NCBI GenBank assembly: GCA_020058085.1
Contig: JAGVER010000014.1
Location: 33,747-97,746, forward strand
Source of the DNA: Candidatus Omnitrophota bacterium
GTDB lineage: Bacteria > Omnitrophota > Gorgyraeia > Gygaellales > Profunditerraquicolaceae
Length of the DNA: 64,000 nucleotides
Direction: 5' to 3'
Part shown: positions 26,715-59,357 of the stretch, piece by piece
Numbering within the stretch: the stretch's first letter is position 1
How the letters are laid out: the number at the start of each line of letters is the position of its first letter
The notes under the pieces: model-generated
Seen by the model: only the letters and a program-made list of their open reading frames with translations
Database searches by the model: none
What the model was told of the DNA's origin: nothing
Made by a program: the position numbers and the translations under genes

Positions 26715-27861
26715 TTCTTATAATCTCCACAGGATTAGAATTCAGTGTTATCCAGGTAGGGACTGCCGCAGCAAAAACCGCACTCCCTAAAATAATCCCT
26801 GTAATTTTTAGTATAAAAACAATTCCTAGCGTAGGAACAAGCGCATTGATGCCAGTTATACCAAAGATGTATGCTGTCCCTTTAAAACCCAGCAATATTC
26901 CAAGAGCGCCCCCGATGAATGCGACGATTAAAGATTCACAAATAAAAAGCAAAGCGATTTCAACCTTCTGCCATCCCAAAGCAAGTAAGATAGCGAGAAG
27001 CTTGCGTTTTTCAAAACTGGAAGTAACCATAGTATTAGCTAAGCCCAAGGCCACCGCGATAACAGTAATCAAGCTCACGAGAAAAGAAAATTGTTCTCCC
27101 ATTACAATGAATTTTGTCTTTTCGGAAACAAATGCGTCCGCTCTCATAGCCGCGATGGTCGGAAAAAGACGCTCGATCTCTTTTATCGTGCTCTCAATCA
27201 TAGCTTCCGATCGATACTGAGGCTTTAACTTTACGTTAATAAAAGTTGCCTTGCCTTCTTCATGGATTGTTTTCTGAAGATCTGCTAATGGCATCAGCAC
27301 AGCAAATTGTTCAAAAGGACTACTGCTCTTAAACACACCGACAACAATAAATGAGACCCCTTTGATTTTGATCTCTTTTTCATTTTCTTTCCCTAAACTC
27401 CTCGCCAGGGAATCACCGACCATGACTTCTTTTTTCCCAAGAGCAGGCCTCCTGCCATGGATAAGTTCAACGGCGTCAAATAAAAAGCTGTTCTCTTCCC
27501 ATCCAAAGACAGGAACCGCAACTCCTTTGATTTTATGAAGATATAAAAGCGTAGCCGAAGCATCCTCTATGGCCGAAATTCCTTGAATTTCTTGCGTAAG
27601 GTGTGCATCCACTCTGCTCAACAAAATACTCAACTGATCTTTCTCTTCAATAATTATCTCTATCTGGCGTTTACCATAAATATCTTTAAAAGAATTTTTT
27701 ATGCTTTCCCCTATACCTAGCATAATAATGCATACAGATACCCCAATACTAACCCCGCAAATAGTAAGGAAGACACGCATTTTTTTCTGAAAGATGTCTT
27801 TAACTAAAAAATATAATATATTCATAAGATTGATCCTGCTCGATAAAAAAAATCCCCGCAT
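26707..27861 (-). CDS. ABC transporter permease, FtsX/LolCE family
   Basis: 384 aa with an N-terminal TM, a periplasmic domain and 3 C-terminal TM helices. Cotranscribed with the ATPase. Confidence 0.65.
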   Translation of the reverse strand: MRGFFLSSRINLMNILYFLVKDIFQKKMRVFLTICGVSIGVSVCIIMLGIGESIKNSFKDIYGKRQIEIIIEEKDQLSILLSRVDAHLTQEIQGISAIEDASATLLYLHKIKGVAVPVFGWEENSFLFDAVELIHGRRPALGKKEVMVGDSLARSLGKENEKEIKIKGVSFIVVGVFKSSSPFEQFAVLMPLADLQKTIHEEGKATFINVKLKPQYRSEAMIESTIKEIERLFPTIAAMRADAFVSEKTKFIVMGEQFSFLVSLITVIAVALGLANTMVTSSFEKRKLLAILLALGWQKVEIALLFICESLIVAFIGGALGILLGFKGTAYIFGITGINALVPTLGIVFILKITGIILGSAVFAAAVPTWITLNSNPVEIIRSE

Positions 27862-28062
27862 CGTGCCGTCGGACTGAATAGCTTGAACCAGTTTATTTTA
27901 AGGTGGGTGCCCTCTCTCGGATGCTTAAGGCATACGTGAATACGGGCTCCCTTGATATTTTTGTTGGTTCAAAAATTATCAAATTTCCGACGCGCACAGC
28001 AGGGATATCTAAAAGAGCGATTTCTAGAAAAAGTATAGCATATATCCCGGAAAAGTCAATCC

Positions 28063-33159: not shown

Positions 33160-33822
33160 TCATAATTTTCCTGCCAGTAAATTTAAAAGCTGCGGTTCAT
33201 TTCCTATGAGCGTTAAAGCCACTACATCATCCCCGGGCTTAAGTATAGTATCACCCTTAGGGACGATAACCTCTTCACCCCGTAAAATAGAGACTAAAAC
33301 CGAGTCTTTAGGAAGGAGTATATCCTTAATCTCTTTATTTATTACCGGAGAATCTTCCGGTAGATCCACGCGCACAATAGCAAGTTTACCGCGTTTAAAA
33401 CTCATCAAATTAACGAAGTCTGAAAAAGATACTTCTTCTTCAATAATCTTAGCGATGATCTTAGTAGAATCAACCGGGATATCAATGCCTAACTCGCTGA
33501 AAGTATGTTCATTATCCGGATTATTTACTCTCCCGACCGTGCGCTGTATATTAAACCGCTCTTTAGCTAACTGACAGATAATCAAATTATCTTCATCATC
33601 ACCTGTAACCGCAGCTACTACATCTGCCCGGAGTATTCCGGCCTCTTCTAAGATCCTTGGATCACAACCATCGCCGTTAATTACTAGTGCCTCAATATTC
33701 TTCGCCACATCTTCACAGATAAGCTTATTCTTATCTATAATACTGATAGTATGTTTATTATTTACAAGCCTCTTGGCCAAGAAATAACCCACCTTACCTG
33801 CGCCGATGATTATAATATACAT
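33160..33822 (-). CDS. trkA: TrkA/KtrA K+ transport NAD-binding regulatory subunit
   Basis: IIGAGKVG Rossmann motif (TrkA-N) plus a TrkA-C domain. Confidence 0.75.
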   Translation of the reverse strand: MYIIIIGAGKVGYFLAKRLVNNKHTISIIDKNKLICEDVAKNIEALVINGDGCDPRILEEAGILRADVVAAVTGDDEDNLIICQLAKERFNIQRTVGRVNNPDNEHTFSELGIDIPVDSTKIIAKIIEEEVSFSDFVNLMSFKRGKLAIVRVDLPEDSPVINKEIKDILLPKDSVLVSILRGEEVIVPKGDTILKPGDDVVALTLIGNEPQLLNLLAGKL

Positions 33823-33910
33823 TTCTTACAGACCTCCAATCTAATTCTCCCTATATTTGTATTTAGAGAATTAATCCCTTCTCGCTGAAGGCGAAAAGGG
33901 ACCTAACAAC

Positions 33911-34558
33911 TTAAAGCAACTTAAACTTTTCTTTTATCTTATCAAGACTGGCAACTTTAATTACCGCCATTAATACGTCTTTAAGTTTAAATACAGTCAC
34001 ACTCTCCGGAATAATAACCCCGGAAAGCCTTCTAATAGCTACTATCATAAATTCTTGAGGAATATTTATATCCATGGGAGTCTTACCGACAAGCTCATCC
34101 TTAACTTCAATCTCAAATACTCCGAGATCCTTAGTTTCAATTAAATAGCTAGAGAAGCGGCTTTCAATAATTTTATCTCTTAGCATAGAGGCAAAAAGCG
34201 TTGTCCCGCTTATAATATCCAGGCCTAATGCCGCATAGATATGCGCACGCTGAGGATCATATACGCGAGCGATAACTTTGGGAACCTTGAATATTTTCTT
34301 AGCCACTTGCGCTGAAATTAAATTAGTATTATCTCCATTAGTAACAGTGCAAAAGGCGTCTGCTTTTTCAATTCCTACCTGTTTTAACAGATCGAGATCG
34401 AATCCATTCCCAGCCATGGTTAAACCATTAAAGGTATTACCTAGACGGTCAAAAGAATCCCGGGATTTGTCAATTACAACGACATTATGCCCTTCGTTAG
34501 ACAAAAGCTTTGCCAGCTCGGCGCCTACTCTTCCGCAACCAACTATTATCACATACAT
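33911..34558 (-). CDS. second TrkA/KtrA-like NAD-binding subunit
   Basis: IVGCGRVG Rossmann motif plus TrkA-C. Paralogue of 33160..33822; the two share a near-identical 5' UTR. Confidence 0.7.
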   Translation of the reverse strand: MYVIIVGCGRVGAELAKLLSNEGHNVVVIDKSRDSFDRLGNTFNGLTMAGNGFDLDLLKQVGIEKADAFCTVTNGDNTNLISAQVAKKIFKVPKVIARVYDPQRAHIYAALGLDIISGTTLFASMLRDKIIESRFSSYLIETKDLGVFEIEVKDELVGKTPMDINIPQEFMIVAIRRLSGVIIPESVTVFKLKDVLMAVIKVASLDKIKEKFKLL

Positions 34559-43087: not shown

Positions 43088-43137
43088 CTCCTCCTTGTGC
43101 AGTAGCACACACCGGACTCTCAATTAAGTCCGGGTGT
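43088..43137. repeat. structured intergenic repeat, family 2 copy b (parA-parB spacer)
   Basis: ctccttgtgcagtagcacacaccggactctcaattaagtccgggtgtt. In mRNA sense it forms a hairpin ending at the parB ribosome-binding site. Confidence 0.75.
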
Positions 43138-43919
43138 TATTTAACTATAGCATCTTTTAGCGGCAGACCTAAAATCTCCCGACAGAGTTCCTCATATTTT
43201 TGAGCGCCAAGAGAATCTTTATCATACAAATAAATCGGCTTACCAAAGCTCGGAGCTTCGGTAAGACGAATATTACGTGGAATTACCGTCTGATAAACCT
43301 TATCCTTAAAATGATTCCTGGCTTCTTGAATTACTTCTCTAGTAAGATTAGTCCTGTAATCTGCCATAGTCAATAGAACTCCCTCGATTGTTAAGTTTTG
43401 ATTAATATTATCTTTCACAAGTCTAATTGTATTATTAAGTTGCGTTAATCCTTCTAAGGCGTAATATTCGCACTGTACCGGCACAATAACTGAATCTGCC
43501 GCACATAAACCATTGATAGTTAAAAGCCCTAATGACGGAGGGGAATCAACAATGATAAAATCAAATTCTATTTTTATTTTTTCCAGGGCCCTTTTTAATC
43601 TATATTCCCTACCTAGCGATCCAACTAATTCTACTTCTGCTCCAGTTAAATCTAAATTAGATGGTGCAAGGACCAGGTTTGGTATTGCAGTAGGTTGAAG
43701 CACATCTCGGATATCTATTTCTTCCAAAAGTACATGATAAGTGCTTTTTTTGATGTCATGCTTATTCGCACCTATACCGCTAGTTGCGTTCGCTTGAGGA
43801 TCTAAATCTACAAGCATAACTTTCTTACCGGCAACAGCAAGGAATACAGCAATATTAATTGCTGATGTAGTTTTACCTACTCCACCCTTCTGATTACAGA
43901 TTGTAATTATCTTACCCAT
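43137..43919 (-). CDS. parA: chromosome partitioning ATPase ParA/Soj
   Basis: KGGVGKTT deviant Walker A. 260 aa. Confidence 0.85.
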   Translation of the reverse strand: MGKIITICNQKGGVGKTTSAINIAVFLAVAGKKVMLVDLDPQANATSGIGANKHDIKKSTYHVLLEEIDIRDVLQPTAIPNLVLAPSNLDLTGAEVELVGSLGREYRLKRALEKIKIEFDFIIVDSPPSLGLLTINGLCAADSVIVPVQCEYYALEGLTQLNNTIRLVKDNINQNLTIEGVLLTMADYRTNLTREVIQEARNHFKDKVYQTVIPRNIRLTEAPSFGKPIYLYDKDSLGAQKYEELCREILGLPLKDAIVK

Positions 43920-44012
43920 TGCAATTCATATAGTTACAATTTGTGTCCCGCGGAACATTCCTTAATTTGCTACCTCTATTATCTAAAAATTCTAGAGGTT
44001 GTCAAGTGTTTT

Positions 44013-44072
44013 TTCTTGATTTCACTTACGTTCAATCAAGAATTTCGCTAGACAAAACTTATGGTGCTCAAC
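44013..44072 (+). repeat. hairpin-plus-tail repeat, family 3 copy A
   Basis: cttgatt-TCACTTACGTT-caatcaag hairpin followed by aATTTCGCTAGACAAAACTTATGGTGCTCAA. Confidence 0.75.
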
Positions 44073-44086
44073 TTTTAGGAGCATTT

Positions 44087-44281
44087 TTACCTTATCTCCC
44101 TTATAATAGTAACGCGTACCTTAGCTAACTTAGTTCCAGGCATACCAAAAAGGCCCTTTGCTTCTTCAGAGATAATCTCTACTCTAACTTTCTTGCGTGG
44201 AAGCTGTAATTGTTGCAGGGCTTTTTTAATAGCTTCTTCCACCGTATTCCCTTCTATCTCAATAGCCTTATCTTCCTTCAT
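44087..44281 (-). CDS. Jag N-terminal-domain protein (truncated Jag/SpoIIIJ-associated protein)
   Basis: 64 aa with IEIEGNTVEEAIKKALQQL...RVEIISEEAKGLFG, matching the Jag_N domain. Follows yidC with a 4-nt overlap. No KH or R3H domains. Confidence 0.5.
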   Translation of the reverse strand: MKEDKAIEIEGNTVEEAIKKALQQLQLPRKKVRVEIISEEAKGLFGMPGTKLAKVRVTIIREIR

Positions 44282-45819
44282 TTTGCCCTATTCATGCGCA
44301 GTTGAAATGCTAACATAAGCATACTATTTACAAACCAATACAAAACTAATCCAGATGGCATGCGATAAAATATTAAACCAAACATAACCGGCATAACAAT
44401 AAGCATTATCTTTTGCTGTTCAGCAGAAGCGCCGCTAGCAGATGCCGAGGAGATCTTCTGCTGCACAAACATACCTATTGCCATAATAATGGGTAATATA
44501 TTTAAATCGCTCCCCAATATTGGCAATGATTTAGGTAGTATTATTAGACGATCTGGCTCAGAGAGATCCTTAATCCAAAGAAATCTCGCTCCTTTTAAAA
44601 CAATGGAGCGCATAAGTGCATTATAAAGAGCAAAGAATATAGGCATCTGTAGCAACAACGGCAAACAGCCACCTAAAGGATTAACCTTATGCTCTTTATA
44701 TAACCCCATTATCTCTTTGTTCATTCTTTGCGGATTATCTTTATAAATCTTGCGTAATTCTTCAACTTTAGGTTGCAAAACCTGCATTTCTTTCATTGAA
44801 CGCATCTGCTTTATGGATAGCGGGTATAACATTAAATATACTAATATACTTAATAAAACAATTGCCAAACCCCAGTTATGAACTATCTTATAGAGAAAAC
44901 CTAAGGCTTGCAAAAGTACTTGTGAAATAATATCAAATGTGCCATAATGAACTAGTGCGGACCATGCTGGATTGATACTATTAAGAATACCCACATCTTG
45001 CGGGCCTATGTAAATACGGTACGAATGTCCAATCTGACCGCCAGTTGGAACATTTTCTGTTTGGACATTTAATCCAATCTCGGATTCCTGTTTATTTAAT
45101 GTATTTACAAAACCACTAGCATTTTCTACATCTGGCTCAATAATAGCAGCGAAATATTGATCTCTTACTCCTAAAAATTTAACCCCGCTCAACTGCGTAT
45201 TCTTCTGTATACCTATGTGCGTAGTCTTATCCTGCATTGCTAAAGTTAAATCTTGATACCGCGCTTGAGAATTCTTGGATGAAAAATCCATAATTCCTAA
45301 TAATAGGGGTACTTCTAACTTAAGTGGAGAGGATGATAAATTTTGTATATTTATCTCTAAGCTCATGGTGTAATTAGAGTTATGAAACTTAAATCTTTTA
45401 GTTACCCTTTTATCAGCATTAACCGCAATAAAACTAATACTATCTTGGCTAATCTGACTCTTTTTAAAAACTAATGTTGGGTCATTTAATAGTAGTCCAT
45501 ATTTCAACGGCAGGGAATGGTTGCCGTAGTTCTTAAAAGTCACCTCTTTAAGCGCTGCGAGGTTCTCATAAAAAGTGACCATTAAGTTGCTCTGTTCGAA
45601 CTTAACAAGGCTCTCAGTTTCTGGTTTAGTTGATTGAATTACGCTAGCTGAAAGCGTTGTATTTTGCTTATTTAGTAATGGCTCTTTAGTTGTAACATCT
45701 TGCACGCCAACATTTTGCTGCTTTGGCATGATAAAGGACCAAATTAACAAAACCGCCAAAGATAATGCTATTGCCAAAACCATACGTTTTTCCATATTAA
45801 TCCAGGGGATCATAACCAT
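44278..45819 (-). CDS. yidC: membrane protein insertase YidC
   Basis: 513 aa with a large periplasmic domain and a conserved C-terminal 5-TM core. Confidence 0.85.
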   Translation of the reverse strand: MVMIPWINMEKRMVLAIALSLAVLLIWSFIMPKQQNVGVQDVTTKEPLLNKQNTTLSASVIQSTKPETESLVKFEQSNLMVTFYENLAALKEVTFKNYGNHSLPLKYGLLLNDPTLVFKKSQISQDSISFIAVNADKRVTKRFKFHNSNYTMSLEINIQNLSSSPLKLEVPLLLGIMDFSSKNSQARYQDLTLAMQDKTTHIGIQKNTQLSGVKFLGVRDQYFAAIIEPDVENASGFVNTLNKQESEIGLNVQTENVPTGGQIGHSYRIYIGPQDVGILNSINPAWSALVHYGTFDIISQVLLQALGFLYKIVHNWGLAIVLLSILVYLMLYPLSIKQMRSMKEMQVLQPKVEELRKIYKDNPQRMNKEIMGLYKEHKVNPLGGCLPLLLQMPIFFALYNALMRSIVLKGARFLWIKDLSEPDRLIILPKSLPILGSDLNILPIIMAIGMFVQQKISSASASGASAEQQKIMLIVMPVMFGLIFYRMPSGLVLYWFVNSMLMLAFQLRMNRAK

Positions 45820-46012
45820 ACTTGCCGGAAAATGGTTGGCAAGAAGATATTCTCCTGACTCCTTTTGCTGATCCTTTTAAGAATCCATATTTTACAATAG
45901 CCAGTTTCGTATATTCGGAACAACTAGGAATAAAACGACAAGACTGGGGTAATACCCTTCTAAGAGAGACCTGATAAACTTTAATTAAAAATAAGGCTGC
46001 ACGCTTAAGCAT
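45797..46012 (-). CDS. yidD: membrane protein insertion efficiency factor YidD
   Basis: CRFIPSCSEYT...SCQPFSGKYGYDP motif. Confidence 0.8.
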   Translation of the reverse strand: MLKRAALFLIKVYQVSLRRVLPQSCRFIPSCSEYTKLAIVKYGFLKGSAKGVRRISSCQPFSGKYGYDPLD

Positions 46013-46149
46013 TACCTACAGAGTTTTTTTCTGCCCTTTTGCCGGCGTCGAGCCAATAGTTTGCGGCCATTGCGGGTAGCCATTTTGCTGCGGAATCCAA
46101 GCTTTCTCTTTCCGACGATATTTGTCGGTGTTTTCAAATTCTTTTTCAT
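46012..46149 (-). CDS. rpmH: 50S ribosomal protein L34
   Basis: Translates MKKNLKTPTNIVGKRKLGFRSKMATRNGRKLLARRRQKGRKKLCR. Not in the ORF track because it is under 60 aa. Its stop overlaps the yidD ATG by 1 nt. Confidence 0.8.
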   Translation of the reverse strand: MKKNLKTPTNIVGKRKLGFRSKMATRNGRKLLARRRQKGRKKLCR

Positions 46150-46267
46150 CTCTTTTGACTCCTACTGTATTGTATTAATAAGAATTGTGGTTAATTATAA
46201 CATAAAAGCATGCCTCGTCAATGGCTAATTTTTATTCATCCCTGCGTTATGCACAAATAGACGATAA

Positions 46268-46276
46268 TTATCCACA
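46268..46276 (+). promoter_or_regulatory. DnaA box (perfect TTATCCACA)
   Basis: Exact 9-mer consensus in the rpmH-dnaA intergenic region. Confidence 0.6.
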
Positions 46277-46311
46277 GTCCCGTCGAAAAACGGATACAAT
46301 CTCAATGGGTT

Positions 46312-46370
46312 TCCTTGGCCTCACTTACGTTCGGCCAAGGATTTCCCTAGATAAAAACTTTAGAGCTCAA
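46312..46370 (+). repeat. hairpin-plus-tail repeat, family 3 copy B
   Basis: ccttggcc-TCACTTACGTT-cggccaagg hairpin followed by aTTTCCCTAGATAAAAACTTTAGAGCTCAA. It ends 7 nt before the dnaA -35 element. Confidence 0.75.
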
Positions 46371-46377
46371 TTTTTTA

Positions 46378-46405
46378 TTGACGCCCGGAAATATTATTGT
46401 ATAAT
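46378..46405 (+). promoter_or_regulatory. sigma70-type promoter for dnaA (TTGACG-N16-TGtTATAAT)
   Basis: -35 TTGACG at 46378..46383, extended -10 TG+TATAAT at 46398..46405 and a 16-nt spacer, about 200 nt upstream of the dnaA ATG. Confidence 0.55.
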
Positions 46406-46552
46406 AACTGACGTTTAACTTTTTTGCTTGCAACTGTTTTTGTTTCTGTTATAATTATTCTACGCTTCTGGATTTTTAATCATATTTTCCCCAATGGCTT
46501 TTTTATTTGGGTGCTAAACAATATTCAAATCCTGCTTTAACGAAAGAAATTA

Positions 46553-46595
46553 TTGTCCACAGATTTATTCAAGTTGTGGATAAACTGTTGATAAG
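46553..46595. promoter_or_regulatory. DnaA box cluster immediately upstream of dnaA (candidate oriC / autoregulatory boxes)
   Basis: TTGTCCACA (+) at 46553..46561, TTATCCACAA on the minus strand at 46574..46583, and TTATCAACA on the minus strand at 46587..46595. Confidence 0.55.
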
Positions 46596-46601
46596 AGAGA
46601 A

Positions 46602-47939
46602 ATGGACGACGTGAGCTTAATTTGGGACCAAGCACGAAGATACTTAAAAGAACATCTTGGCGTATCGACATTTGAAACTTGGATTGCCCCGTTAATCATA
46701 AAAGCTAAAGACCAAAACAGTATTATACTCGAGGCCCCAGATGCTTTTTTCAGGGATTGGATTAAAAAAAATTACAGCGCAGCTATAGAAGCTGCGGTCA
46801 AATCCGCGAGCCTCTCCCAAATAAATATAGAAATTGGGGTAGGGGCGCAATCCGAAAGCATAGCAGATAAAAAAGAAGCGAAGAGCCCGTATACAATAGA
46901 GAGTCGTGGCCAACAGAGTCTAAAACTAAACAGTCGTTATACTTTTGAGAATTTTGTAATTGGCTCTTCCAACCGGCATGCCCATGCTTATTCTGTTGCT
47001 GTAGCAGAATCGCCCGCGAAGACCTATAATCCTTTATTTATTTACGGAGGTGTTGGGTTAGGAAAAACCCACTTAATTCAAGCCATATGCCATAAAGTTC
47101 AGGCCAATTCTAACGGAACCCTAAGAATCACCTATCTGCCTTCAGAGCAATTTACTAACGAACTAATTAGTTCCATCCAGCATCATTCTACAGCTGCTTT
47201 TAGGCAAAAATATAGAAATACCGACGTTCTGGTAATAGATGATGTCCATTTCTTCGGCGGCAAAGATTCAACTCAAGAAGAATTTTTCAACACTTTTAAC
47301 GCCCTTTATGACGCGCATAAACAAATAATCTTATCCTCTGACAGGCCACCCAAGGATATAGCAGACCTTCAAGAGAGATTGATTTCGCGCTTTGGTTGGG
47401 GCCTAACTACTGATATACAACCCCCGGATCTTGAAACACGCATCGCCATATTAAAAAAGAAGATCGAAAGAGAACCTGTTGCCGTCCCGGATGATGTAAT
47501 ATTTTTTATCGCCCAACTCATCAGAACCAACATCCGGGAATTAGAAGGCGCATTAGTCAGAACCATGGCTTACTCATTAATGGAAGAGAAACCTATTACT
47601 ATAGACTTAGCTAAAGAAGTTTTAAGAGACCTCTTAAAAGAACCCAAAAAACTTATTACTATAGATTTTATTCAAAGATGTGTAGCAGAAGAATTTGGGA
47701 TCTCCTTGGGGGATATGAAAGCCCGCCGACGCAATAAAACAATAGTGCTACCAAGACAAGTAGCCATGTATTTAAGTAGAGACTTAACTGATTTATCCCT
47801 ACCTGAGATAGGGCAGTTTTTCGGTGGCAAAGACCACACAACAGTTTTACATTCGTATAATAAAATTAAAGAAGCAATCAAGGCAGGCTCTTCGTTGACC
47901 GAAAAGATAGAAAAAATCACGCAAGTCATTAAACAGTAA
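46602..47939 (+). CDS. dnaA: chromosomal replication initiator protein DnaA
   Basis: AAA+ Walker A GGVGLGKTHL, sensor motifs and a C-terminal DNA-binding domain (box-binding helix). 445 aa. Confidence 0.9.
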   Translation: MDDVSLIWDQARRYLKEHLGVSTFETWIAPLIIKAKDQNSIILEAPDAFFRDWIKKNYSAAIEAAVKSASLSQINIEIGVGAQSESIADKKEAKSPYTIESRGQQSLKLNSRYTFENFVIGSSNRHAHAYSVAVAESPAKTYNPLFIYGGVGLGKTHLIQAICHKVQANSNGTLRITYLPSEQFTNELISSIQHHSTAAFRQKYRNTDVLVIDDVHFFGGKDSTQEEFFNTFNALYDAHKQIILSSDRPPKDIADLQERLISRFGWGLTTDIQPPDLETRIAILKKKIEREPVAVPDDVIFFIAQLIRTNIRELEGALVRTMAYSLMEEKPITIDLAKEVLRDLLKEPKKLITIDFIQRCVAEEFGISLGDMKARRRNKTIVLPRQVAMYLSRDLTDLSLPEIGQFFGGKDHTTVLHSYNKIKEAIKAGSSLTEKIEKITQVIKQ

Positions 47940-48076
47940 TTAAGAGGGTTATCCAAGCTTGTTTTTTGTGTTAACTATAACTCAGGCAAGATATTGTGTG
48001 GTTTTCAACAGAAACACAAACCATTATTACTAATACTGTTTTAATATATTAAATAATAAATAGTAAGGAGCGTAAA
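47940..48076. other. AT-rich dnaA-dnaN spacer, alternative candidate DNA-unwinding element
   Basis: A degenerate box TTATCCAAG at 47949..47957 and a strongly AT-rich run at 48030..48064. Confidence 0.3.
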
Positions 48077-49168
48077 ATGAAGTTTAAGGTAGAAAAAAAC
48101 ATATTGATAAGCGGTATTCAAACCGTACAAAACGTTATTATTACCAAGAGTAGTTTACCCATATTGTCGAACATTTTAATAGAAACACAAGAAGATGGAT
48201 TACGTTTGACTGCCACCGATTTAGATATTGGTATAACCTGTTTAATACCTGTTAATATCCAAGAGGCGGGAGCGGTTACTGTACCAGCTAAAAGGTTTAG
48301 TGATATTATTAAGGAATTGCCCGGGAGTAGTATTAGTGTAACCACTAAAAAAAACAATCAGGTGAACATTGAAACAGATTTATGTCAATTTAAGATTATG
48401 GGTTTGGCTCGTGAAGAGTTCCCCAAGCTCCCAGAGTTTAAGGATAAAGAGGTATTTAAGTTAGAGCAGTCGGTTTTAAAAGAAATGCTCAACCTTACAT
48501 CATTTTCTGTTTCTATTGATGAAACGCGATATATTTTAAATGGGATACTGTTTAAGGTTAATAAAAATGGGCTTATTTTAGTAGCCACCGATGGTAAAAG
48601 GTTGGCGGTTGTGGAGAAAAAGCTGAATTACAGTGTAAGCCAAGAGATAAGCATTATTATTCCTATTAAAACTATCCATGAATTAAATCGTAATCTGAAA
48701 GAAGAGGGAGAGCTCTCTATTGTTTTGGGAAGTAATCAAGCGTTGTTTGATTTGGGTGGTGTTGTAATAATATCGCGGCTGATCGAAGGCGAATTTCCGG
48801 ATTATAAACAAGTTATTCCGCCAACAACAGAAAATAAATTGCGCGTGAGAAGGGAAGATCTTTTGTTGGCTGTAAAAAGAGCCGCATTGTTGTCTACTCC
48901 CGATTATCAGGCAGTTAAGTTAGAGATATTTAAGAATAAGCTTGTGGTCTCAAAGTCTACCCCGGACGTAGGAGAGTCTCGCGAGGAATTGGTGGTTGCG
49001 TACCAAGGTAAAGAATTAGCCATAGGTTTTAACCCAAACTATTTAATAGATGTTTTAAAAAATCTCGGAGAAGAGTCTATAGATATAGAACTAAGCGATA
49101 GCGAAAAACCCGGAGTTATCCGTATCGACGGTTATACATATATCGTATTACCTATGCGCATAGGTTAA
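48077..49168 (+). CDS. dnaN: DNA polymerase III beta sliding clamp
   Basis: 363 aa, three-domain clamp, immediately downstream of dnaA. Confidence 0.9.
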   Translation: MKFKVEKNILISGIQTVQNVIITKSSLPILSNILIETQEDGLRLTATDLDIGITCLIPVNIQEAGAVTVPAKRFSDIIKELPGSSISVTTKKNNQVNIETDLCQFKIMGLAREEFPKLPEFKDKEVFKLEQSVLKEMLNLTSFSVSIDETRYILNGILFKVNKNGLILVATDGKRLAVVEKKLNYSVSQEISIIIPIKTIHELNRNLKEEGELSIVLGSNQALFDLGGVVIISRLIEGEFPDYKQVIPPTTENKLRVRREDLLLAVKRAALLSTPDYQAVKLEIFKNKLVVSKSTPDVGESREELVVAYQGKELAIGFNPNYLIDVLKNLGEESIDIELSDSEKPGVIRIDGYTYIVLPMRIG

Positions 49169-49172
49169 AAAG

Positions 49173-53179
<4,007 letters not shown>

Positions 53180-53186
53180 ATATTAA

Positions 53187-53969
53187 ATGGAGGCCATTAT
53201 GCATCCTTGGGAAATTTTTGTTGAAGGTTTAAAGAATTGGCGGGTCAATTGGCCAAAGCTCGCAGGGATATATTTATTAATTTATATACCTCTTACTCTC
53301 TGGGATCTGCTTTGGAGTTCAAAAGGCGCGCAGCCGATCTTGGCTCAACTTGCGAGTGGCCTTATGCGTTGGGCACTCGACGCTTTCGTGATGGCAAGTT
53401 TAATTTTGTCGGTAAAAGAGCAATTAAATGCGATAGCAAGTAAGGCGATGGCTACAATGAAAGCAGCAACTAAATATTTATGGCGCTATATGTTAACTAC
53501 TTTATTGTATGGCATTATTGCCATGGGTATTATCTTATTGGCAGTTATGATTATGAGTTTTATGTTTGCTGCTTTTATCAAAATGCCGAATATAACTATT
53601 GCTGCTGTACTGATGCCTACTATCGCTATAATAGCGTGTGTGGTGATAATGGTCTATTGTGTAATTAGATTTTCGCTCTTCGGGGTCATATGTATTATGG
53701 AAGAAGTAGGGCCAGTTAGGTCGCTTAAAGCTAGCCATAGCCTGATAAAAAATAAAGTTTCGCCGGTTGTCGGGGTATTCTTTTTTATTTTATTGCTTTC
53801 CGCGTTATTGTTTATCCCGGGTTACCTCTTGATTCAAGTAATCGGGCCTAATGGCGCAGGTAATATTTTATTAGTTATTTATCAAGTTTTAGTAGGCGCG
53901 GTGGCAGTTCCTATCTGGGCATCCGTTGCGGTTATATTGTATAAAAAATTAAAAGAGGCAGTTAACTAA
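53187..53969 (+). CDS. polytopic integral membrane protein, hypothetical (between gyrB and gyrA)
   Basis: 260 aa with 5-6 hydrophobic helices and no recognisable motif. Confidence 0.4.
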
Positions 53970-53973
53970 AAAT

Positions 53974-56406
53974 ATGTATACTCGTAACGAGAAAATAATC
54001 CCGATTTGTATTGAAGAAGAGGTTAAGAATGCTTACTTAAATTATGCGATGAGTGTAATTGTTGGCCGTGCGCTACCGGATGTCAGAGACGGGCTTAAGC
54101 CGGTGCATAGAAGGATTCTCTATGCTATGCAAGATCTGAATCTTGATCACTCTAAACCCTACAAAAAATGCGCCCGTATCGTCGGCGAAACTATGGGTAA
54201 GTACCATCCACATGGGGATGTGGCAATTTATGATACTTTAGTAAGAATGGCGCAGGATTTTTCTCTACGCTATCCTCTTGTCGATGGCCAAGGAAACTTT
54301 GGATCAGTCGATGGGGATGCGGCTGCGGCTATGCGTTATACCGAAGCGCGTCTTGCCGCGATTTCCGATGTGATGCTCGGAGATATTGATAAGGAAACGG
54401 TTAATTTTGGCCCGAATTTCGACGCTTCTTTAAAAGAGCCCTTATTATTACCTGCGGCACTCCCTAATCTTTTGGTTAATGGCTCCAGCGGTATTGCTGT
54501 GGGCATGGCAACTAATATTCCGCCGCATAATCTCAATGAAGTAGCGGATGCGATTATTCATATTTTAGATAATCCCGCAGCGGAAATTAAAGACCTGCTG
54601 CGCTATATCAAGGGCCCGGATTTTCCGACGGGAGGAGTGATTTGTGGCAAGGCCGGGATCAAAGAAGCTTATACTACCGGGCGCGGTAAGCTCACTGTGC
54701 GCGCTAAGGCGACCGTGGAGCATCAGAAGAATGGCAAAGACCTAATTATTATTACTGAAATTCCTTATCAGGTGCAGAAGTCTTCGGTTATTGAAAACAT
54801 CGCTGATTTAGTTGACGATAAAAAGATTGAAGGTATCTCGGATATTCGCGATGAGTCAGATAAAGACGGTATGCGCATTGTCGTGGAATTAAAACGCGAG
54901 ATTGAACCGCAGCTGATCTTAAACCAGATCTTTAAACATACCCAGCTGGAAACCACCTTTGGCATTATAATGTTGGCCTTAGTAGAAAACCGGCCGCGGG
55001 TCTTAAATTTAAAACAAATTTTAGATTGCTATATTGAACATCGTAAGCTTATTGTCCGGCGCAGGACGCAGTTTGAATTGGATAAGGCCTTAAGGCGCGC
55101 GCATATTTTAGAGGGCTTGAAAATTGCGCTTAAATTTATTGACCGTATTATTAAGGTGATTAAAACATCCAAAAGTGTTGATGTCGCTAAGATAAACTTA
55201 ATGAAGGAGTTTGAACTTTCCGAAATTCAATCCCAGGCAATCTTGGAGATGCAGCTGCAGCGTTTAACCGCCCTGGAACGGGATAAACTTGAGGCCGAAT
55301 ATGCCGAGCTTTTAAAGAAAATCGAGTTTTGCCAGGCGATCTTGGCTTCAGAGAAGAGGATCGAAGGCATTATTAAAATGGAATTAGAAGATTTAAAGAA
55401 AAAATACGGCGATGAGCGCAGGACGGATATAGTCGGTGAAGTAGAGGAATTGGAAGTAGAAGATTTTATTGCCGAAGAAGATGTTGTTGTTACTATAAGC
55501 CACGGAGGCTATATTAAGCGCCTGCCGGTTAGCGCGTATCGCAAGCAAAAACGCGGCGGCACAGGCGCGACCGGGGCAGATCTCAAGGACGAAGATTTTA
55601 TTGAACATCTTTTTGTCGCTTCCACCAAAGACTATCTTTTAATTTTTACAGGCAAGGGCCAGGTACATTGGCTTAAGGTTTACGAGATACCACAGGCAAC
55701 CCGAACCTCCAAGGGTAAGGCTATAGTTAATCTAGTGCAGATGGAAGCAGGTTCTAAAATCAGTTCAACTATCCCGGTAAAGGAATTTGTCGGCGATAAG
55801 TATTTGGTGATGGCTACTAAATTAGGCCAAATTAAGAAGACTCGGCTTGACGCTTATGGTAACCCCAGAAAAGGCGGGATTATCGGGATTACTTTAGATA
55901 AAGATGATGAGTTAATCGGGGTAGAGATGACTGATGGTAAGCAGGAGTTGTTAATCGGTACCCGTCAGGGTAAGGCAATAAGATTTTCAGAGGAAAAAGT
56001 GCGCGATATGGGCAGAGGCGCGCGCGGGGTAAGAGGTATCTCTTTAGGTAAGAAAGACGAGGTTATTGATATGGTTATCCCCCAAAAAGGAGCGACCATA
56101 TTGACAGTTACTTCTTTAGGCTTTGCCAAGCGTACTACCGTTGATGAATACCGGTTGACTAGTCGCGGCGGTAAAGGGGTAATTAACATAAAAGTTACAG
56201 ATAAAAATGGTGAGGCAGTAAATTTAAAGACTGTAAATGATAATGATGAGTTGATGGTTATTACGCAGAACGGAATTTTCTTACGCTGCGCTATAAAAGA
56301 TATCCGTGAAACCGGACGTTCTGCCCAAGGTGTTCGCTTAATCAAATTGCAAGATAAGGATCATGTTTCTTGTGTTGCTCCGGTAATTGCTGAGGAAGAA
56401 GAATAG
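53974..56406 (+). CDS. gyrA: DNA gyrase subunit A
   Basis: Active-site region AMRYTEARL and a GyrA-box-bearing C-terminal beta-pinwheel. 810 aa; no intein. Confidence 0.9.
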
Positions 56407-56410
56407 GTTT

Positions 56411-56485
56411 GACCCCATCGTCTAGCCTGGTCTAGGACAAGAGCTTTTCAAGCTCTCGACACGGGTTCAAATCCCGTTGGGGTCA
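56411..56485 (+). tRNA. tRNA-Glu(TTC)
   Basis: GACCCCA-TC-GTCTAGCCTGGTCTAGGAC-AGAGC-TTTTCAA-GCTCT...ACGGG-TTCAAAT-CCCGT-TGGGGTC-A. Closely resembles E. coli tRNA-Glu. No CCA is encoded. Confidence 0.75.
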
Positions 56486-56526
56486 TTGATATTTGAAGGC
56501 GTTGTTTCGATTTGCTTGCGCCTAGG

Positions 56527-56590
56527 TCCTTGTTGCCTGCGGCAACAAGGATTTCGCACTAGATAAAAACTTATGGTGCTCAAATTTCGC
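56527..56590 (+). repeat. hairpin-plus-tail repeat, family 3 copy C
   Basis: ccttgttgcc-tgc-ggcaacaagg hairpin followed by ATTTCGCACTAGATAAAAACTTATGGTGCTCAAATTTCGC. It ends 22 nt before the glmS ATG. Confidence 0.75.
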
Positions 56591-56612
56591 AAACAAAATT
56601 TAAGGAACTCAA

Positions 56613-58451
56613 ATGTGCGGAATAATCGGATATATTGGTGAAAGAGAAGCACAGCCTGTGCTTCTCAACGGGCTTAAGCGTCTTGAGTACCGCGGATACG
56701 ATTCAAGCGGTATGGCCGTAATCTTTCCCAAGAAAAACACCATCTCTATAAGGAAGGCTCCCGGTAAAATAAGAGACTTAGAAAAAATACTAAAAGTCAG
56801 GCCACTTTCTGGGAATACCGGTATCGCTCATAGCCGCTGGGCAACTCATGGAGCTCCCACCCAAGCTAATGCCCACCCACATGAAGATTGCAAAGGAGAG
56901 ATAGCTGTGGTTCATAATGGTATTATCGAAAATCACGAGACTTTAAAAGCACAGCTAATTAAAGAAGGCCATAAATTCCGCAGCCAAACAGATACCGAAG
57001 TAATCGTGCATCTTATTGAAAAGTTTTATAAAAAAATCCCGTTGGAGGATGCTGTTGCCTGTGCGCTTAAATTGCTGGTAGGTTCTTTTGCGATTGGAGT
57101 CATTTCTGTAAAAGAGCCTAATAAATTAGTTGGCGCGCGTTCCGGGAGCCCGTTAATTGTCGGGGTAGGTAAGAACGAAAACTTTCTTGCTTCCGATGCC
57201 CCGGCGATATTAGAATTAACCAAGGACATTATTTTTTTAGATGAGGATGAGCTGGTAGTTTTATCAAAAGATAGCCTTAAGATATCGGATTTTGAAGGAA
57301 AAACTATTTTTAAGAAACCGGTACGTATCAATTGGGATATAACGCAGGCGCAAAAAAACGGCTTTAAGCATTTCATGCTTAAGGAGATCAATGAACAACC
57401 CAGGATTTTGGAGAATATATTAAATATAAGGATAGATAAAAAATCCGGGCAGGTTATTTTTAAGGAGCAGAATGTTCCGGAAGAAAAGCTAAAAACTATT
57501 AAAGATATTTTTATTATTGCCTGCGGCACGGCGTATCACGCAGGATTAGTAGGTAAGTATGCTTTAGAATCAATTTGTGTCATTCCCACACATATAGATG
57601 TTTCCAGCGAATTTCGCTATCGGGATCTTTTAATCGGCCCGGAAACCTTAGTTGTTGCGATAAGTCAATCCGGAGAAACCGCGGATACCTTAGCTGGCGT
57701 GCGCGAGGCGCGCAAGCGCGGGGCATCCGTAATCTCAATTTGCAATGTTTTAGGTTCTACCCTGACCCGCGAATCTGACGGGATAATTTATACCTATGCA
57801 GGCCCTGAGATCGGGGTCGCCTCTACTAAGGCTTATACCGCGCAGTTAGCCGTGTTATATTTATTTGCTTTTTATCTTGCTCAAATACGCGGTGCGCTCT
57901 CGGGATTTAAAATTAATAAATATCTCGGCGCATTACGGAAAATACCCAAACAGATGGGGTTGATATTAAAAGAGCAGAATTCTATAGCGAAAGTCAGCCG
58001 CAAGTATTCGCATTTCGGTTCATTTTTATACTTAGGCAGGAATATTAATTATGCTTCGGCCTTGGAAGGTGCGCTAAAACTAAAAGAGATATCTTATATT
58101 CCTGCTGAAGGTTATGCCGCCGGCGAGATGAAACACGGCCCGATCGCCCTGATTGACGAATACCGCGCGGTAGTTTGTATTGCTGTCTCTTCAAAAGTTT
58201 ATGAAAAAATGGTTTCTAATATTCAGGAGATCCGTTCCCGTAAAGGCAAGATTATCGTTATAGCCAGCGAAGGGGATAAGGAGATTAAAGCTTTGGTCCG
58301 GGAGGTTATCTATATTCCCAGGCAGGATGAAACATTTTCTCCTCTTTTAGTTGCCCTGCCTTTGCAATTGCTAGCGTATCATATTGCGGTTAAGCGCGGT
58401 TGTGATGTTGACCAGCCGCGTAATTTAGCCAAGTCAGTTACGGTTGAATAA
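56613..58451 (+). CDS. glmS: glutamine--fructose-6-phosphate aminotransferase
   Basis: MCGIIGYIG N-terminal nucleophile and two SIS domains. 612 aa. Confidence 0.9.
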   Translation: MCGIIGYIGEREAQPVLLNGLKRLEYRGYDSSGMAVIFPKKNTISIRKAPGKIRDLEKILKVRPLSGNTGIAHSRWATHGAPTQANAHPHEDCKGEIAVVHNGIIENHETLKAQLIKEGHKFRSQTDTEVIVHLIEKFYKKIPLEDAVACALKLLVGSFAIGVISVKEPNKLVGARSGSPLIVGVGKNENFLASDAPAILELTKDIIFLDEDELVVLSKDSLKISDFEGKTIFKKPVRINWDITQAQKNGFKHFMLKEINEQPRILENILNIRIDKKSGQVIFKEQNVPEEKLKTIKDIFIIACGTAYHAGLVGKYALESICVIPTHIDVSSEFRYRDLLIGPETLVVAISQSGETADTLAGVREARKRGASVISICNVLGSTLTRESDGIIYTYAGPEIGVASTKAYTAQLAVLYLFAFYLAQIRGALSGFKINKYLGALRKIPKQMGLILKEQNSIAKVSRKYSHFGSFLYLGRNINYASALEGALKLKEISYIPAEGYAAGEMKHGPIALIDEYRAVVCIAVSSKVYEKMVSNIQEIRSRKGKIIVIASEGDKEIKALVREVIYIPRQDETFSPLLVALPLQLLAYHIAVKRGCDVDQPRNLAKSVTVE

Positions 58452-59104
58452 TGCTATACATAGTTGCCACTCCAATAGGCAATCTTAAGGATATAACCTT
58501 TCGGGCTATAGAAGTTTTAAAATCCGTAGATTTGATTGCCTGCGAGGATACGCGCCACACCAAGATCCTCCTTAACCATTATGATATTCATAAACCAACG
58601 ACAAGTTTTTTCCAGCAGAATAGGTTTACCAAAGGCGAGTATATCCTGGGATTGTTAAAAGAAGGCAAAAATATCGCCCTTGTCTCTGATGCCGGTACCC
58701 CCGGCATACTTGATCCGGGTTATAATTTAATTAATTTAGCCATAAAAAATAATATCGCAATAACGGTAATTCCGGGAGCTACTGCTTTTGTGAATGCTTT
58801 AGTGCTTTCAGGAAAACCTGCGCATGAATTTATTTTTGTTGGATTTCTGCCTAACCGTTCCGGTGCGCGGAAAAATCAGCTCAAAGAGCTGATTCAACAA
58901 AAGCGCACGATCATCCTTTATGAATCCTGCCACCGCATTCTCGCTACCCTAGAGGACATCGATACGGTATTTGGCGATAGGGAGATAGTGGTAACCAGGG
59001 AACTAACCAAGAAATTTGAAGAAATAAAACGGGATAAGGCTAGTCGACTTATAGAGTATTTTGAAAAAGTAAGCCCGCGTGGCGAGTTCGTTTTGGTTAT
59101 TTAA
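58451..59104 (+). CDS. rsmI: 16S rRNA (cytidine1402-2'-O)-methyltransferase RsmI-like (short form)
   Basis: LYIVATPIGNLKDITFRAIEVLKSVDLIACEDTRHT, the tetrapyrrole-methylase fold typical of RsmI. 217 aa. Confidence 0.65.
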   Translation: MLYIVATPIGNLKDITFRAIEVLKSVDLIACEDTRHTKILLNHYDIHKPTTSFFQQNRFTKGEYILGLLKEGKNIALVSDAGTPGILDPGYNLINLAIKNNIAITVIPGATAFVNALVLSGKPAHEFIFVGFLPNRSGARKNQLKELIQQKRTIILYESCHRILATLEDIDTVFGDREIVVTRELTKKFEEIKRDKASRLIEYFEKVSPRGEFVLVI

Positions 59105-59149
59105 TTTTGTAGGAAAGAGTTCTCATCCTTGACCTCACTAGCGATCAGG

Positions 59150-59210
59150 CCCTTGTTGCTACGGCAACAAGGATTTCGCTGGACAAAGGCTTATTGTGCT
59201 CAAATTTCGT
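59150..59210 (+). repeat. hairpin-plus-tail repeat, family 3 copy D
   Basis: ccttgttgc-tac-ggcaacaagg hairpin followed by ATTTCGCTGGACAAAGGCTTATTGTGCTCAAATTTCGTC. It ends 1 nt before the pyrR -35 element. Confidence 0.75.
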
Positions 59211-59211
59211 C

Positions 59212-59239
59212 TTGACAATTACGACAATAATGGTATACT
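59212..59239 (+). promoter_or_regulatory. sigma70-type promoter for the pyrR operon (TTGACA-N16-TGgTATACT)
   Basis: -35 TTGACA at 59212..59217 and extended -10 TGg+TATACT at 59231..59239. Confidence 0.5.
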
Positions 59240-59254
59240 TATTCAAATATATAA

Positions 59255-59357
59255 AGGACCTTTAAGCCCAGCTCTGTGAAGTTGGCAAGGTAAGTATAAT
59301 GAAAGAGAGAATGATAAAAATATCACCCTTGGCAAGAAATGCCAGGGGTATTTTTTT
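59255..59357 (+). promoter_or_regulatory. pyr leader: candidate PyrR-binding loop plus intrinsic terminator/attenuator
   Basis: cctttaagcccagctctgtgaagttggcaagg resembles PyrR-box leader sequence. The hairpin cccttggca-agaaa-tgccagggg at 59326..59348 is followed by a U-run at 59350..59357, just 5' of pyrR. The upstream ttggcaagg could form an alternative antiterminator pairing. Confidence 0.45.

Follow-up and report, generated by a model that had tools for sequence, protein, structure and literature searches.

A hairpin-plus-tail repeat at gene starts of Candidatus Omnitrophota, probably a spreading mosaic intergenic family

Introduction

The RAYT-associated REP/BIME repeats of enterobacteria and pseudomonads are short extragenic hairpins, imperfect palindromes of about 20–40 nt whose stems keep their complementarity. 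Joined to conserved non-palindromic motifs, they make up mosaics and clusters; inside operons they are transcribed, and the hairpin can then act on the RNA; and copies of one genome are alike and persist in a lineage over the long term. In the NIMEs of Neisseria, a non-palindromic repeat (RS) alternates with an inverted repeat whose ends are conserved and whose centre varies (dRS3, ATTCCC-N8-GGGAAT), and both NIMEs and Correia elements are intergenic, differ between related strains and can bring expression signals to a neighbouring gene. Here we analyze a repeat of this general kind in a 64,000-nucleotide stretch of a Candidatus Omnitrophota genome (contig JAGVER010000014.1 of assembly GCA_020058085.1, positions 33,747 to 97,746; hereafter the window). 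An earlier reading of this DNA, the original prediction, had noticed four copies (A–D) of a hairpin followed by a conserved tail, upstream of dnaA, glmS and pyrR and beside parA. On balance, these copies are probably members of an Omnitrophota-specific short mosaic intergenic repeat that spreads in the manner of BIMEs and NIMEs and is sometimes co-opted as a ribosome-binding site.

The Omnitrophota repeat resembles REP/BIME sequences in all of these respects, with 59 distinct stems among its hairpins. Unlike them, it lacks a GTAG/GTGG-type 5′ tetranucleotide, forms direct tandem arrays rather than the alternating inverted pairs of REPINs and BIMEs, and occurs in tens rather than hundreds of copies per genome. 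It also lies in one orientation at the 5′ edge of the downstream gene, whereas REP sequences lie mainly at 3′ ends; its tail carries a usable ribosome-binding site; and no RAYT gene was linked to it among the open reading frames (ORFs) inspected beside ten arrays. An inverted repeat with conserved ends (here TCC..N..GGA) in alternation with a non-palindromic sequence recalls the NIMEs, and the repeat shares with NIMEs and Correia elements the intergenic, strain-variable and signal-donating character, but the sequences are unrelated and from another phylum, the units are smaller (about 25 + 31 nt) and the co-orientation with the downstream gene is strong. Correia elements have terminal inverted repeats and a TA duplication; the Omnitrophota repeat has neither.

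The general kind, a mosaic extragenic repeat, is already known, and the element belongs to no named family. As far as the searchable literature shows, the hairpin-plus-tail family is undescribed: the tail sequence was not found in the literature text searched, and the main Omnitrophota genomics paper (PMC10066038) and keyword literature searches held nothing on such repeats. Rfam 15 gave no match on any copy, neither above gathering score nor at E up to 10. What is new and unusual is the wide occurrence in an uncultured phylum, the sharply defined architecture, the placement at gene starts and the supply of ribosome-binding sites.

Results

A family of variable hairpins with a conserved tail

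The four matches lie on the plus strand exactly where the original prediction placed them. A profile hidden Markov model (HMM) built from copies A–D scored each copy at E 1e-15 to 1e-18 against the 64-kb window and found no further match below E 0.6 in the rest of it. R1, a covariance model built solely from copies of other genomes and run with filters off, recovered all four at 44–56 bits (E 2e-9 to 3e-12), and the exact tail 30-mer is expected 0 times in shuffled sequence. The parts of the copies, with minimum free energies (MFE) and fold z-scores for two hairpins, are as follows.

44013..44042, + strand: copy A hairpin, 9-bp stem TTCTTGATT/AATCAAGAA, UC:UC internal loop, 2-bp inner stem, loop TTAC; MFE -10.4, z -2.1
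44042..44071, + strand: copy A tail ATTTCGCTAGACAAAACTTATGGTGCTCAA; the jag-like and parA genes on either side run the opposite way
46312..46341, + strand: copy B hairpin TCCTTGGCC/GGCCAAGGA, loop as in A; MFE -18.1, z -3.5
46341..46370, + strand: copy B tail ATTTCCCTAGATAAAAACTTTAGAGCTCAA, the most diverged tail of the window
56527..56551, + strand: copy C hairpin, perfect 11-bp stem TCCTTGTTGCC/GGCAACAAGGA, loop TGC; near-identical to the D hairpin
56551..56583, + strand: copy C tail ATTTCGCacTAGATAAAAACTTATGGTGCTCAA, with a 2-nt insertion
56584..56612, + strand: decayed older second tail ATTTCGCAAACAAAATTTAAGGAACTCAA, R1 10.9 bits; ends at the glmS ATG and gives its AAGGA ribosome-binding site; orthologous to the decayed tail in relative L204
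59126..59149, + strand: decayed older hairpin TCCTTGACCTCACTAGCGATCAGG, preceding D; orthologous to the single hairpin at the L204 pyrR locus
59150..59173, + strand: copy D hairpin CCTTGTTGC/GCAACAAGG; compared with L204, an extra hairpin inserted between the older hairpin and ATTTCGC
59173..59203, + strand: copy D tail ATTTCGCTGGACAAAGGCTTATTGTGCTCAA, with an unusual CTGGRCAAAGGCTTA common to the L204 tail
33845..33901, − strand: weak decayed fifth copy, tentative; hairpin TCCCTTTTCGC/GCGAGAAGGGA and degenerate tail, R1 12.8 bits, E 0.16

The tentative fifth copy lies between an ORF at 33911-34558(−) and a trkA-like ORF at 33160-33822(−), co-oriented with both, so that the uniform plus orientation described for the window is true of A–D and does not extend to a rule. 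Copies A and B share the loop TCACTTACGTTC, as had been noticed. The stems of A–D differ in sequence and keep their complementarity, and the fold z-scores of the window hairpins range from -2.1 to -3.9.

We sampled the family outside the window with degenerate-pattern scans of one collection of species-representative genomes and one of metagenome contigs, which gave 198 loci; labels such as L001 or L204 denote the fetched loci or contigs. After removal of duplicates, nhmmer and the covariance model left about 155 units in unique contexts, of which 138, from 100 sources, had E<1e-3 with R1. The true relatives lie nearly all on contigs labelled Candidatus Omnitrophota, both metagenome-assembled genomes and metagenome contigs, and the viral contigs searched held no family member. 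Tandem arrays are head-to-tail direct repeats (L124, L100, L172, L134 and L008). A CRISPR-like reading of such arrays fails, the apparent spacers being hairpins with shared feet between constant tails.

Across these units the tail consensus is ATTTCGCTRGAYAAAA-RCTTAAGGTGCTCAA, in full ATTTCGCTRGAYAAAA-RCTT(T)AAGGTGCTCAA, 31–32 nt long and usually followed by WTT. The hairpin before it always ends exactly at GG/ATTTCGC (the slash marks the end of the hairpin), and its 5′ flank shows just T at -1 (75%) and A at -2 (53%), so that the conserved side is the 3′ one, ATTTCGC. At least five consecutive pairs from the foot are present in 105 of 119 units, against about four in shuffles, and 105 hairpins comprise 59 distinct stems. 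The common plan is U-CC-N3-6, a UC:UC internal loop, a 2–3-bp inner stem and a small loop: the basal pairs (U-CC...GG-A) are conserved, the middle of the stem varies freely and yet covaries, and the tip can be of any length, sometimes being replaced by a long extra hairpin. A second class has perfect 7–10-bp stems with 3-nt loops.

The compensatory stems, conserved tail and promoter-side position inferred from four copies are borne out across about 140 copies; stem covariation in other genomes was among the checks that the original prediction had named. In a hand-picked MAFFT alignment of 26 copies, 95.2% of cells pair, versus 78.0% in shuffles. In 138 model-aligned copies, an alignment that is fitted to the model and leans toward it, the values are 93.0% and 72.5%; here, changes on both sides of a pair occupy 222 cells versus 74 expected, 9 of 9 pairs covary and slid controls pair in only 38–51%. 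Stems with a single mismatch carry G.T rather than A.C in a ratio of 11:3 (p 0.06), an excess that hints that the sense strand folds single-stranded, be it as RNA or as DNA.

Such a fold invites comparison with integron attC sites, which likewise work as folded single strands, their basal pairs conserved, their centre unpaired and their terminal structure variable, and which lie directly upstream of the next ORF in gene orientation. The Omnitrophota repeat differs from them in lacking the RYYYAAC/GTTRRRY core (its basal stem is TCC...GGA) and in flanking core housekeeping genes and tRNAs in conserved synteny, not cassettes, with no integrase context. Among structural readings of the unit that we rejected, preQ1-I and pistol-like folds had no Rfam match even at E up to 10, and a pseudoknot between loop and tail (CTAGCG with CGCTAG) fits one hairpin class only and is sterically unlikely.

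Copies turn over at orthologous loci

Because loci found through the element cannot show whether a site needs it, we picked syntenic relatives through their GlmS homologues, independently of the element, and then fetched the contigs. Six relatives share the order rpmH<->dnaA-dnaN-dciA-gyrB-gyrA-tRNA-Glu-glmS-methylase-pyrR-pyrB, and their combined GyrA, GlmS and methylase identity to the window is 93.8% (L204), 93.5% (L202 and L203), 90.8% (L199), 83.0% (L200) and 82.1% (L201). With filters off, R1 found no element at the dnaA, glmS and pyrR loci of L199, L200, L201, L202 and L203, and these five element-free relatives keep the gene order and the −35/−10 hexamers of the window. In L204, R1 found two copies, a good one at the pyrR locus and a decayed one at glmS.

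The pyrR locus is the clearest case. The empty sites read TAA-agcta-AATATCGTC-TTGACA in L202 and TAA-ggccc-AATATCGAC-TTGACA in L199, that is, TAA-5 nt-AATATCG(T/A)C-TTGACA, and the locus is also empty in L200 and L201. In the window and L204, the element lies between the stop codon and AATNTCG, with the pyrR promoter unchanged downstream; its hexamers are identical in the relatives with an empty site. The D tail and the L204 pyrR tail are orthologous, since both carry the odd CTGGRCAAAGGCTTA. The hairpins in front of these two tails differ: the window has one hairpin more, near-identical to the hairpin of C, and it was inserted at GG/ATTTCGC, the precise boundary of the older hairpin and ATTTCGC.

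At glmS, L204 carries a long hairpin, and the first half (block 1) of its tail has decayed, TCTTACCAAACAAAAACTTAAGGTGTTTG-ATG, with AAGGTG-N6-ATG kept. Its ortholog in the window is the proximal decayed tail, upstream of which the window later gained a new hairpin and consensus tail. Only ATAAAtTTAAGGTGCTCA-ATG remains in L200 and L201, directly after the tRNA, and the spacers of L202 and L199 are short and unrelated. Lineages with a GlmS only 74–77% identical to that of the window carry full glmS copies, which have four unrelated hairpins, and closer relatives at 87–92% identity have none. At dnaA, promoters and DnaA boxes are shared by the window, L199 and L200, of which L199 has at most an unrecognisable remnant of the element and L200 a 75-nt spacer. 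A junction between a small gene and a transporter gene is 14 nt long, and empty, in L158 and a 300-nt mosaic in L089.

Individual copies are thus gained, overwritten, decayed and lost within 5–10% protein divergence, and the family consensus persists. Hairpins of one genome are alike (C and D, A and B, and the units of arrays L124, L172 and L100), and orthologous loci of different genomes carry different hairpins. This combination of within-genome likeness and hairpin turnover between orthologs is what a propagating repeat family would show, rather than a set of independently conserved regulatory sites. Of the possibilities first raised for the copies, a miniature mobile element therefore fares best, in that insertion polymorphism, insertion and replacement of hairpins, arrays and decay are all seen. 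The plain form of that idea, a miniature inverted-repeat transposable element (MITE), does not hold: a MITE-like presence/absence polymorphism exists at orthologous sites (pyrR; the transporter junction of L158 versus L089), but the repeat has an inverted repeat at one end only, the hairpin, its other end being the non-palindromic tail ...GCTCAA, and it shows no terminal inverted repeats, no clear duplication and a non-random placement.

The same loci bear on the proposal that the copies are a shared regulator-binding site, in its present form a duplex-DNA site for a global regulator or an UP-like activator that couples dnaA, glmS, pyrR and other genes. Its attractions are an asymmetric, conserved tail with an A-tract, a promoter-proximal position of about -44 to -75 and a distance from tail end to −35 that is fixed at 5–12 nt, mostly 7–8. 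Against it, relatives without the element keep every base of the dnaA and pyrR promoters, five syntenic relatives lacking it at all three genes, so that the fixed position of an UP element or activator site is kept but the promoters persist without it. Copy A is inverted, which puts its tail about 30 nt farther from the promoter; about one-fifth of copies directly precede an ATG or a tRNA, not a promoter; duplex binding leaves the covariation within the palindrome unexplained; and the flanked genes share no theme. We consider a coupling regulator very improbable. Specific binding sites fared no better: a DnaA box in CTGGATAAA matches at just 6–7 of 9 positions and copies also occur away from the origin, the consensus sequences of IHF, CtrA, Fur and Spo0A sites do not fit, and the resemblance to a dif/Xer site is superficial.

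Units mark the 5′ edges of genes, tRNAs and promoters

The frame downstream of a unit is co-directional with it in 93 cases and opposite in 17 (85% co-oriented), and of 140 units 11 lie between divergent genes and only 2 between convergent genes. Because of this co-direction and the scarcity of convergent placements, the element belongs with the 5′ end of the next gene and not with the 3′ end of the preceding one. What follows the tail is an ATG or GTG within 0–12 nt in 24 units, among them those of glmS, lpxD, pfkA, rpsJ, panD, purF, phoU and a transporter, with AAGGTG/AAGGAG 6–7 nt before the start codon. A sigma70 −35 box follows at 5–12 nt in 16 units and, across another repeated module, at 38–41 nt in 13; the next tandem unit follows in 17–19 units, and a tRNA 5′ end at 2–4 nt in 5. 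The family also precedes dozens of unrelated genes and tRNAs.

The copies in the window lie in the following surroundings, in which the genes are those that the original prediction had guessed.

43137-43919, − strand: parA
43978..44005, − strand: parA promoter-like site TTGACA-16-GATAAT, 11/12 match
44087-44281, − strand: jag-like ORF
44278-45819, − strand: yidC
45797-46012, − strand: yidD
46012-46149, − strand: rpmH
46378..46405, + strand: dnaA promoter P1 TTGACG-16-TATAAT, 11/12-match sigma70, 7 nt after copy B
46602-47939, + strand: dnaA, followed by dnaN, a DciA-like ORF, gyrB with an intein, and gyrA
56410-56486: tRNA-Glu
56613-58451: glmS, ATG at 56613
59212..59239, + strand: pyrR promoter TTGACA-16-TATACT, 11/12-match sigma70, 8 nt after copy D

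The tails of B and D thus end 7 and 8 nt before strong sigma70 sites of dnaA and pyrR, for which the original prediction had given 1–7 nt. Copy A is antisense to parA: it lies on the plus strand, its hairpin foot 7 nt from the parA −35 on the opposite strand (44005->43978). Copy C lies between tRNA-Glu and the glmS ATG, an interval in which our scan found no promoter-like site. On the 3′ side of glmS, a TP_methylase gene ends at 59104 and is followed by pyrR.

A position just ahead of a promoter or gene could suit an intrinsic terminator or insulator, the hairpin halting read-through before the next unit. Many stable hairpins lie 20–100 nt after co-directional stop codons, copies A, B and D are 7–8 nt from strong promoters, and the upstream frame is co-directional in 11 of 16 promoter-adjacent copies. 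The hairpin is, however, followed by AUUUCGCU and not by a U-tract, and a terminator scan calls no copy, A–D included. Only 2 of 140 copies lie between convergent genes, and the 11 between divergent genes have nothing to terminate; many operon-internal copies directly precede an ATG and are necessarily transcribed through; and a conserved 31-nt tail would be superfluous. Termination is accordingly quite improbable as the role of the element.

The suggestion of a small-RNA gene family, in which each unit would be a hairpin-plus-tail RNA of roughly 60 nt, draws on the joint conservation of structure and sequence and on tandem arrays from which single units could be processed. Few hairpins, however, have a strong promoter upstream, and at no consistent distance (6 of 105, scattered), no terminator follows the tail, and the tail runs straight into start codons, tRNAs and −35 boxes. 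We give this idea hardly any credence. A trans-acting RNA was also sought: a 13/16 complementary stretch downstream of the repeat-associated promoter in L155 is not conserved in the other eight loci of that module.

Tail sequences that end at start codons suggest another use. The Shine-Dalgarno-like hexamer is intact in 83% of ATG-adjacent tails versus 46–69% of those before a promoter or other sequence. This contrast is only a trend, because tails that precede another unit are equally intact (88%). As transcribed copies retain over time just AAGGTG at the right distance, comparison of the loci argues for co-option of the tail as a ribosome-binding site. The tail does not read as a promoter by eye: no hexamers fit sigma70, extended −10, sigma54, sigma28, extracytoplasmic-function (ECF), Bacteroidetes-type or T4 MotA-box promoters, the sigma54 reading failing at the GC of the −12 element, and AAGGAG variants destroy the sole −10-like reading while improving the Shine-Dalgarno match. 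At L063 5440-5460(−), the gene that precedes tRNA-fMet terminates at the TAA inside a decayed tail, GCGATAAAAAATTTATGGTGCT, so that a coding region, too, can have its 3′ end made of repeat sequence.

Several of these observations would also be expected of a cis-acting RNA leader or punctuation element, a transcribed hairpin and single-stranded tail read by a conserved trans-acting factor. The factor could be an RNA-binding protein or an endoribonuclease acting at GG/AUUUCGC, so that the upstream RNA would receive a protective hairpin and the downstream RNA a standard ribosome-binding site; GG/AUUU would agree with RN/WUU, the preference of RNase E. The 85% co-orientation, the hairpin covariation with its sense-strand G.U bias, and a tip that varies in length over a conserved internal loop, as is typical of RNA hairpins, all suit this view. 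So do an AAGGTG at optimal distance from 24 start codons, operon-internal skp-lpxD and tRNA-Glu-glmS included, and the case of L001, where the promoter TTGACA-17-TATACT starts a hairpin-tail-tRNA-Leu transcript a few bases before the leader hairpin. Patchy distribution would then mean frequent regulatory rewiring. Yet for three of the window's four copies, and for about 20% of all units, the nearest strong promoter is downstream and its transcript does not include them, and 10–15% of copies are inverted, some of them conserved in that orientation at orthologous sites. Block 1 of orthologous tails decays with the genes intact (L204 glmS), close relatives keep the same genes without the element, which is thus dispensable, the flanked genes form no coherent set, and no Rfam family matches. 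An RNA leader as the primary identity of the family is therefore doubtful in our judgment. A CsrA site at CAAGGAU was rejected, as its GGA is paired at the stem foot and not in a loop.

ATTTCG as a probable joining or target site

All three insertion events that could be reconstructed (the pyrR unit, the extra hairpin of D and the new unit of C) lie immediately 5′ of A(A/T)T(A/T)TCG. A further (A)TT(T)CG right after the tail, echoing the ATTTCGC after the hairpin, is present in 20 of 140 units versus 1.65% at control positions (p 3e-13) and missing from most copies. Several other repeat modules of these genomes also begin ATTTCGC. Given the three events, the junction enrichment and these other modules, ATTTCG looks like a joining or target site.

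A second repeated module is often found after the tail: ATTTCGCGAGGAAATnnCCTCTCTAAA...TTGATAT-N17-TATAAT...TTTAGAGAGGTTTCCCCTCGGCTCATACGAGAGGGACCCC (L155 290-400; also L183, L117, L179, L139, L016, L144 and L107), a strong promoter flanked by inverted repeats and then a conserved, probably structured RNA. It precedes unrelated genes and has no Rfam match. A third module consists of nested hairpins, ATTTCGCRCAGYAAGYGCGCACTTGCCnATCC...GGCAAGGTGC (L175 2147-2190; also L079, L087, L028, L154 and L196), and a fourth reads TTCGCAGACGCCCTACGGGCTACAACTTAC (L121, L064, L193 and L190). Omnitrophota intergenic regions appear to be built of several modules joined at ATTTCGC.

Two observations on these contigs concern other RNAs. 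At L089 3330-3440(−), a structured leader of about 110 nt, closed by CCGCC/GGCGG and downstream of a TTGCAA-17-TATAAT promoter, ends exactly at ATTTCG and precedes repeat units and an SNF-family transporter gene; it could be a riboswitch-like element. The nhaA-I (Na+) riboswitch scores above gathering at L179 3748-3799 and 8786-8843 (both −) and at L183 4121-4178 (+).

Discussion

A spreading repeat would account for these findings as follows. New material, either a hairpin alone or a hairpin with its tail, would go in with a single orientation, directly 5′ of a sequence resembling ATTTCG. That sequence would often be the ATTTCGC of a unit already present, and stacked hairpins, tail-tail pairs and tandem arrays would result. 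Survival or targeting of new copies would be nearly confined to sites a few bases ahead of something functional, be it a −35 box, a start codon or a tRNA 5′ end. A transcribed copy would yield an RNA hairpin and then a ready-made Shine-Dalgarno sequence (AAGGTG/AAGGAG, 6–7 nt before ATG), one that genes such as glmS have taken up. The family would be kept up by copying within the genome and not by conservation of single sites.

From the conserved foot, the wobble bias of one strand and an insertion that seems oriented and free of duplication, we infer a candidate copying enzyme that recognises the hairpin in single-strand DNA, of HUH/RAYT type, or else a site-specific recombinase. IS200/IS605-type ends, which the original prediction had mentioned, are a mechanistic analogy. 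Those ends and their miniature derivatives, palindrome-associated transposable elements (PATEs), are, like the Omnitrophota repeat, hairpin-dependent and orientation-specific, with a sharp conserved end (here ...GCTCAA). They insert by a short specific sequence and make no target duplication, and the few reconstructed events suggest that the Omnitrophota repeat may do likewise; read on the other strand, its units are placed 3′ of CGAAAT or CGATAT. The IS200/IS605-type elements differ in having a hairpin at each end, where the Omnitrophota unit has one, and in their geometry, to which the hairpin-to-end distance of 31 nt does not conform; moreover, Omnitrophota hairpins can insert on their own, and no tnpA or tnpB was seen nearby.

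A number of points weigh against a spreading repeat. Inspection by eye of the ORFs beside ten arrays revealed no transposase, recombinase or RAYT gene, and the copies show no terminal inverted repeats and no consistent target-site duplication. The density away from seeded matches, about 1 unit per 67 kb or tens per genome, is low for a selfish repeat. Presence/absence could partly be loss and not gain, and the tree of the window, L204 and L202 is a near-trichotomy (93.8, 93.5 and 93.3% identity). The tail consensus is kept across lineages with only about 75% GlmS identity; since the search patterns behind most copies prescribed some of its bases, conservation at positions 1–16 and 27–32 is inflated, and the unconstrained middle, TTAAGGT, is still 74–96% conserved. 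Finally, this persistence of the tail consensus, like the non-random gene-proximal sites and 85% co-orientation, would also fit a function selected by the host.

That last point can be taken further. The unit may be a host-maintained expression cassette, in which a conserved factor would both copy it to the 5′ edges of genes and recognise its RNA form, for example a hairpin-specific nuclease or recombinase cutting GG/ATTTCGC. We rate this as unlikely, though its consequences would be considerable: a single processing site and a single ribosome-binding site would serve dozens of housekeeping genes and tRNAs, the unit would be nature's equivalent of synthetic insulators of the 5′ untranslated region, and a repeat would be reaching gene starts by a new route.

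For the uncultured nanobacteria of the Omnitrophota, hardly any gene-expression signals are known from experiment. The repeat gives many of their genomes a conserved sequence landmark for promoters, start codons and tRNA 5′ ends that can improve the annotation of gene starts and operons, and it warns against reading such motifs as regulons. In the loci compared here, core genes such as glmS have received ribosome-binding sites from a repeat. For covariation-based RNA discovery these loci advise caution, as compensatory-looking stems can come from replacement by another family member and not only from stepwise mutation. The copying or recognition factor, if found, could be a new hairpin-specific enzyme.

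Further observations on the window

The replication origin is at rpmH/dnaA, because the GC skew switches sign at 44–48 kb. The dnaA leader (46540-46600) contains an inverted pair of DnaA boxes, TCCACAGATTTATTCAAGTTGTGGATAAACTG, conserved also at L199 1290-1334 and L200 2115-2159, and a further box, TTATCCACA, lies at about 46281, upstream of copy B. Two tandem dnaA promoters, 46378-46405 and 46428-46455, are conserved in three genomes. The 95-aa ORF at 49173-49460(+), between dnaN and gyrB, has a DciA-family (PF05258) gene as its counterpart in the relatives. The 1240-aa gyrB product (49457-53179, +) carries an intein (PF14890) between its GyrB and Toprim domains; L201 has the intein too, and in L199, L200 and L202 gyrB is intein-free and encodes about 810 aa.

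Between the pyrR promoter and pyrR lies a PyrR-binding attenuator leader, 59255-59357(+), conserved in all relatives and scoring 44.8 bits (E 3e-4), under the Rfam gathering score of 54; a terminator-like hairpin is present within this region at 59325-59349. A 6S (SsrS) RNA gene is found at 27849-28008(−), with 73 bits versus Rfam RF00013.

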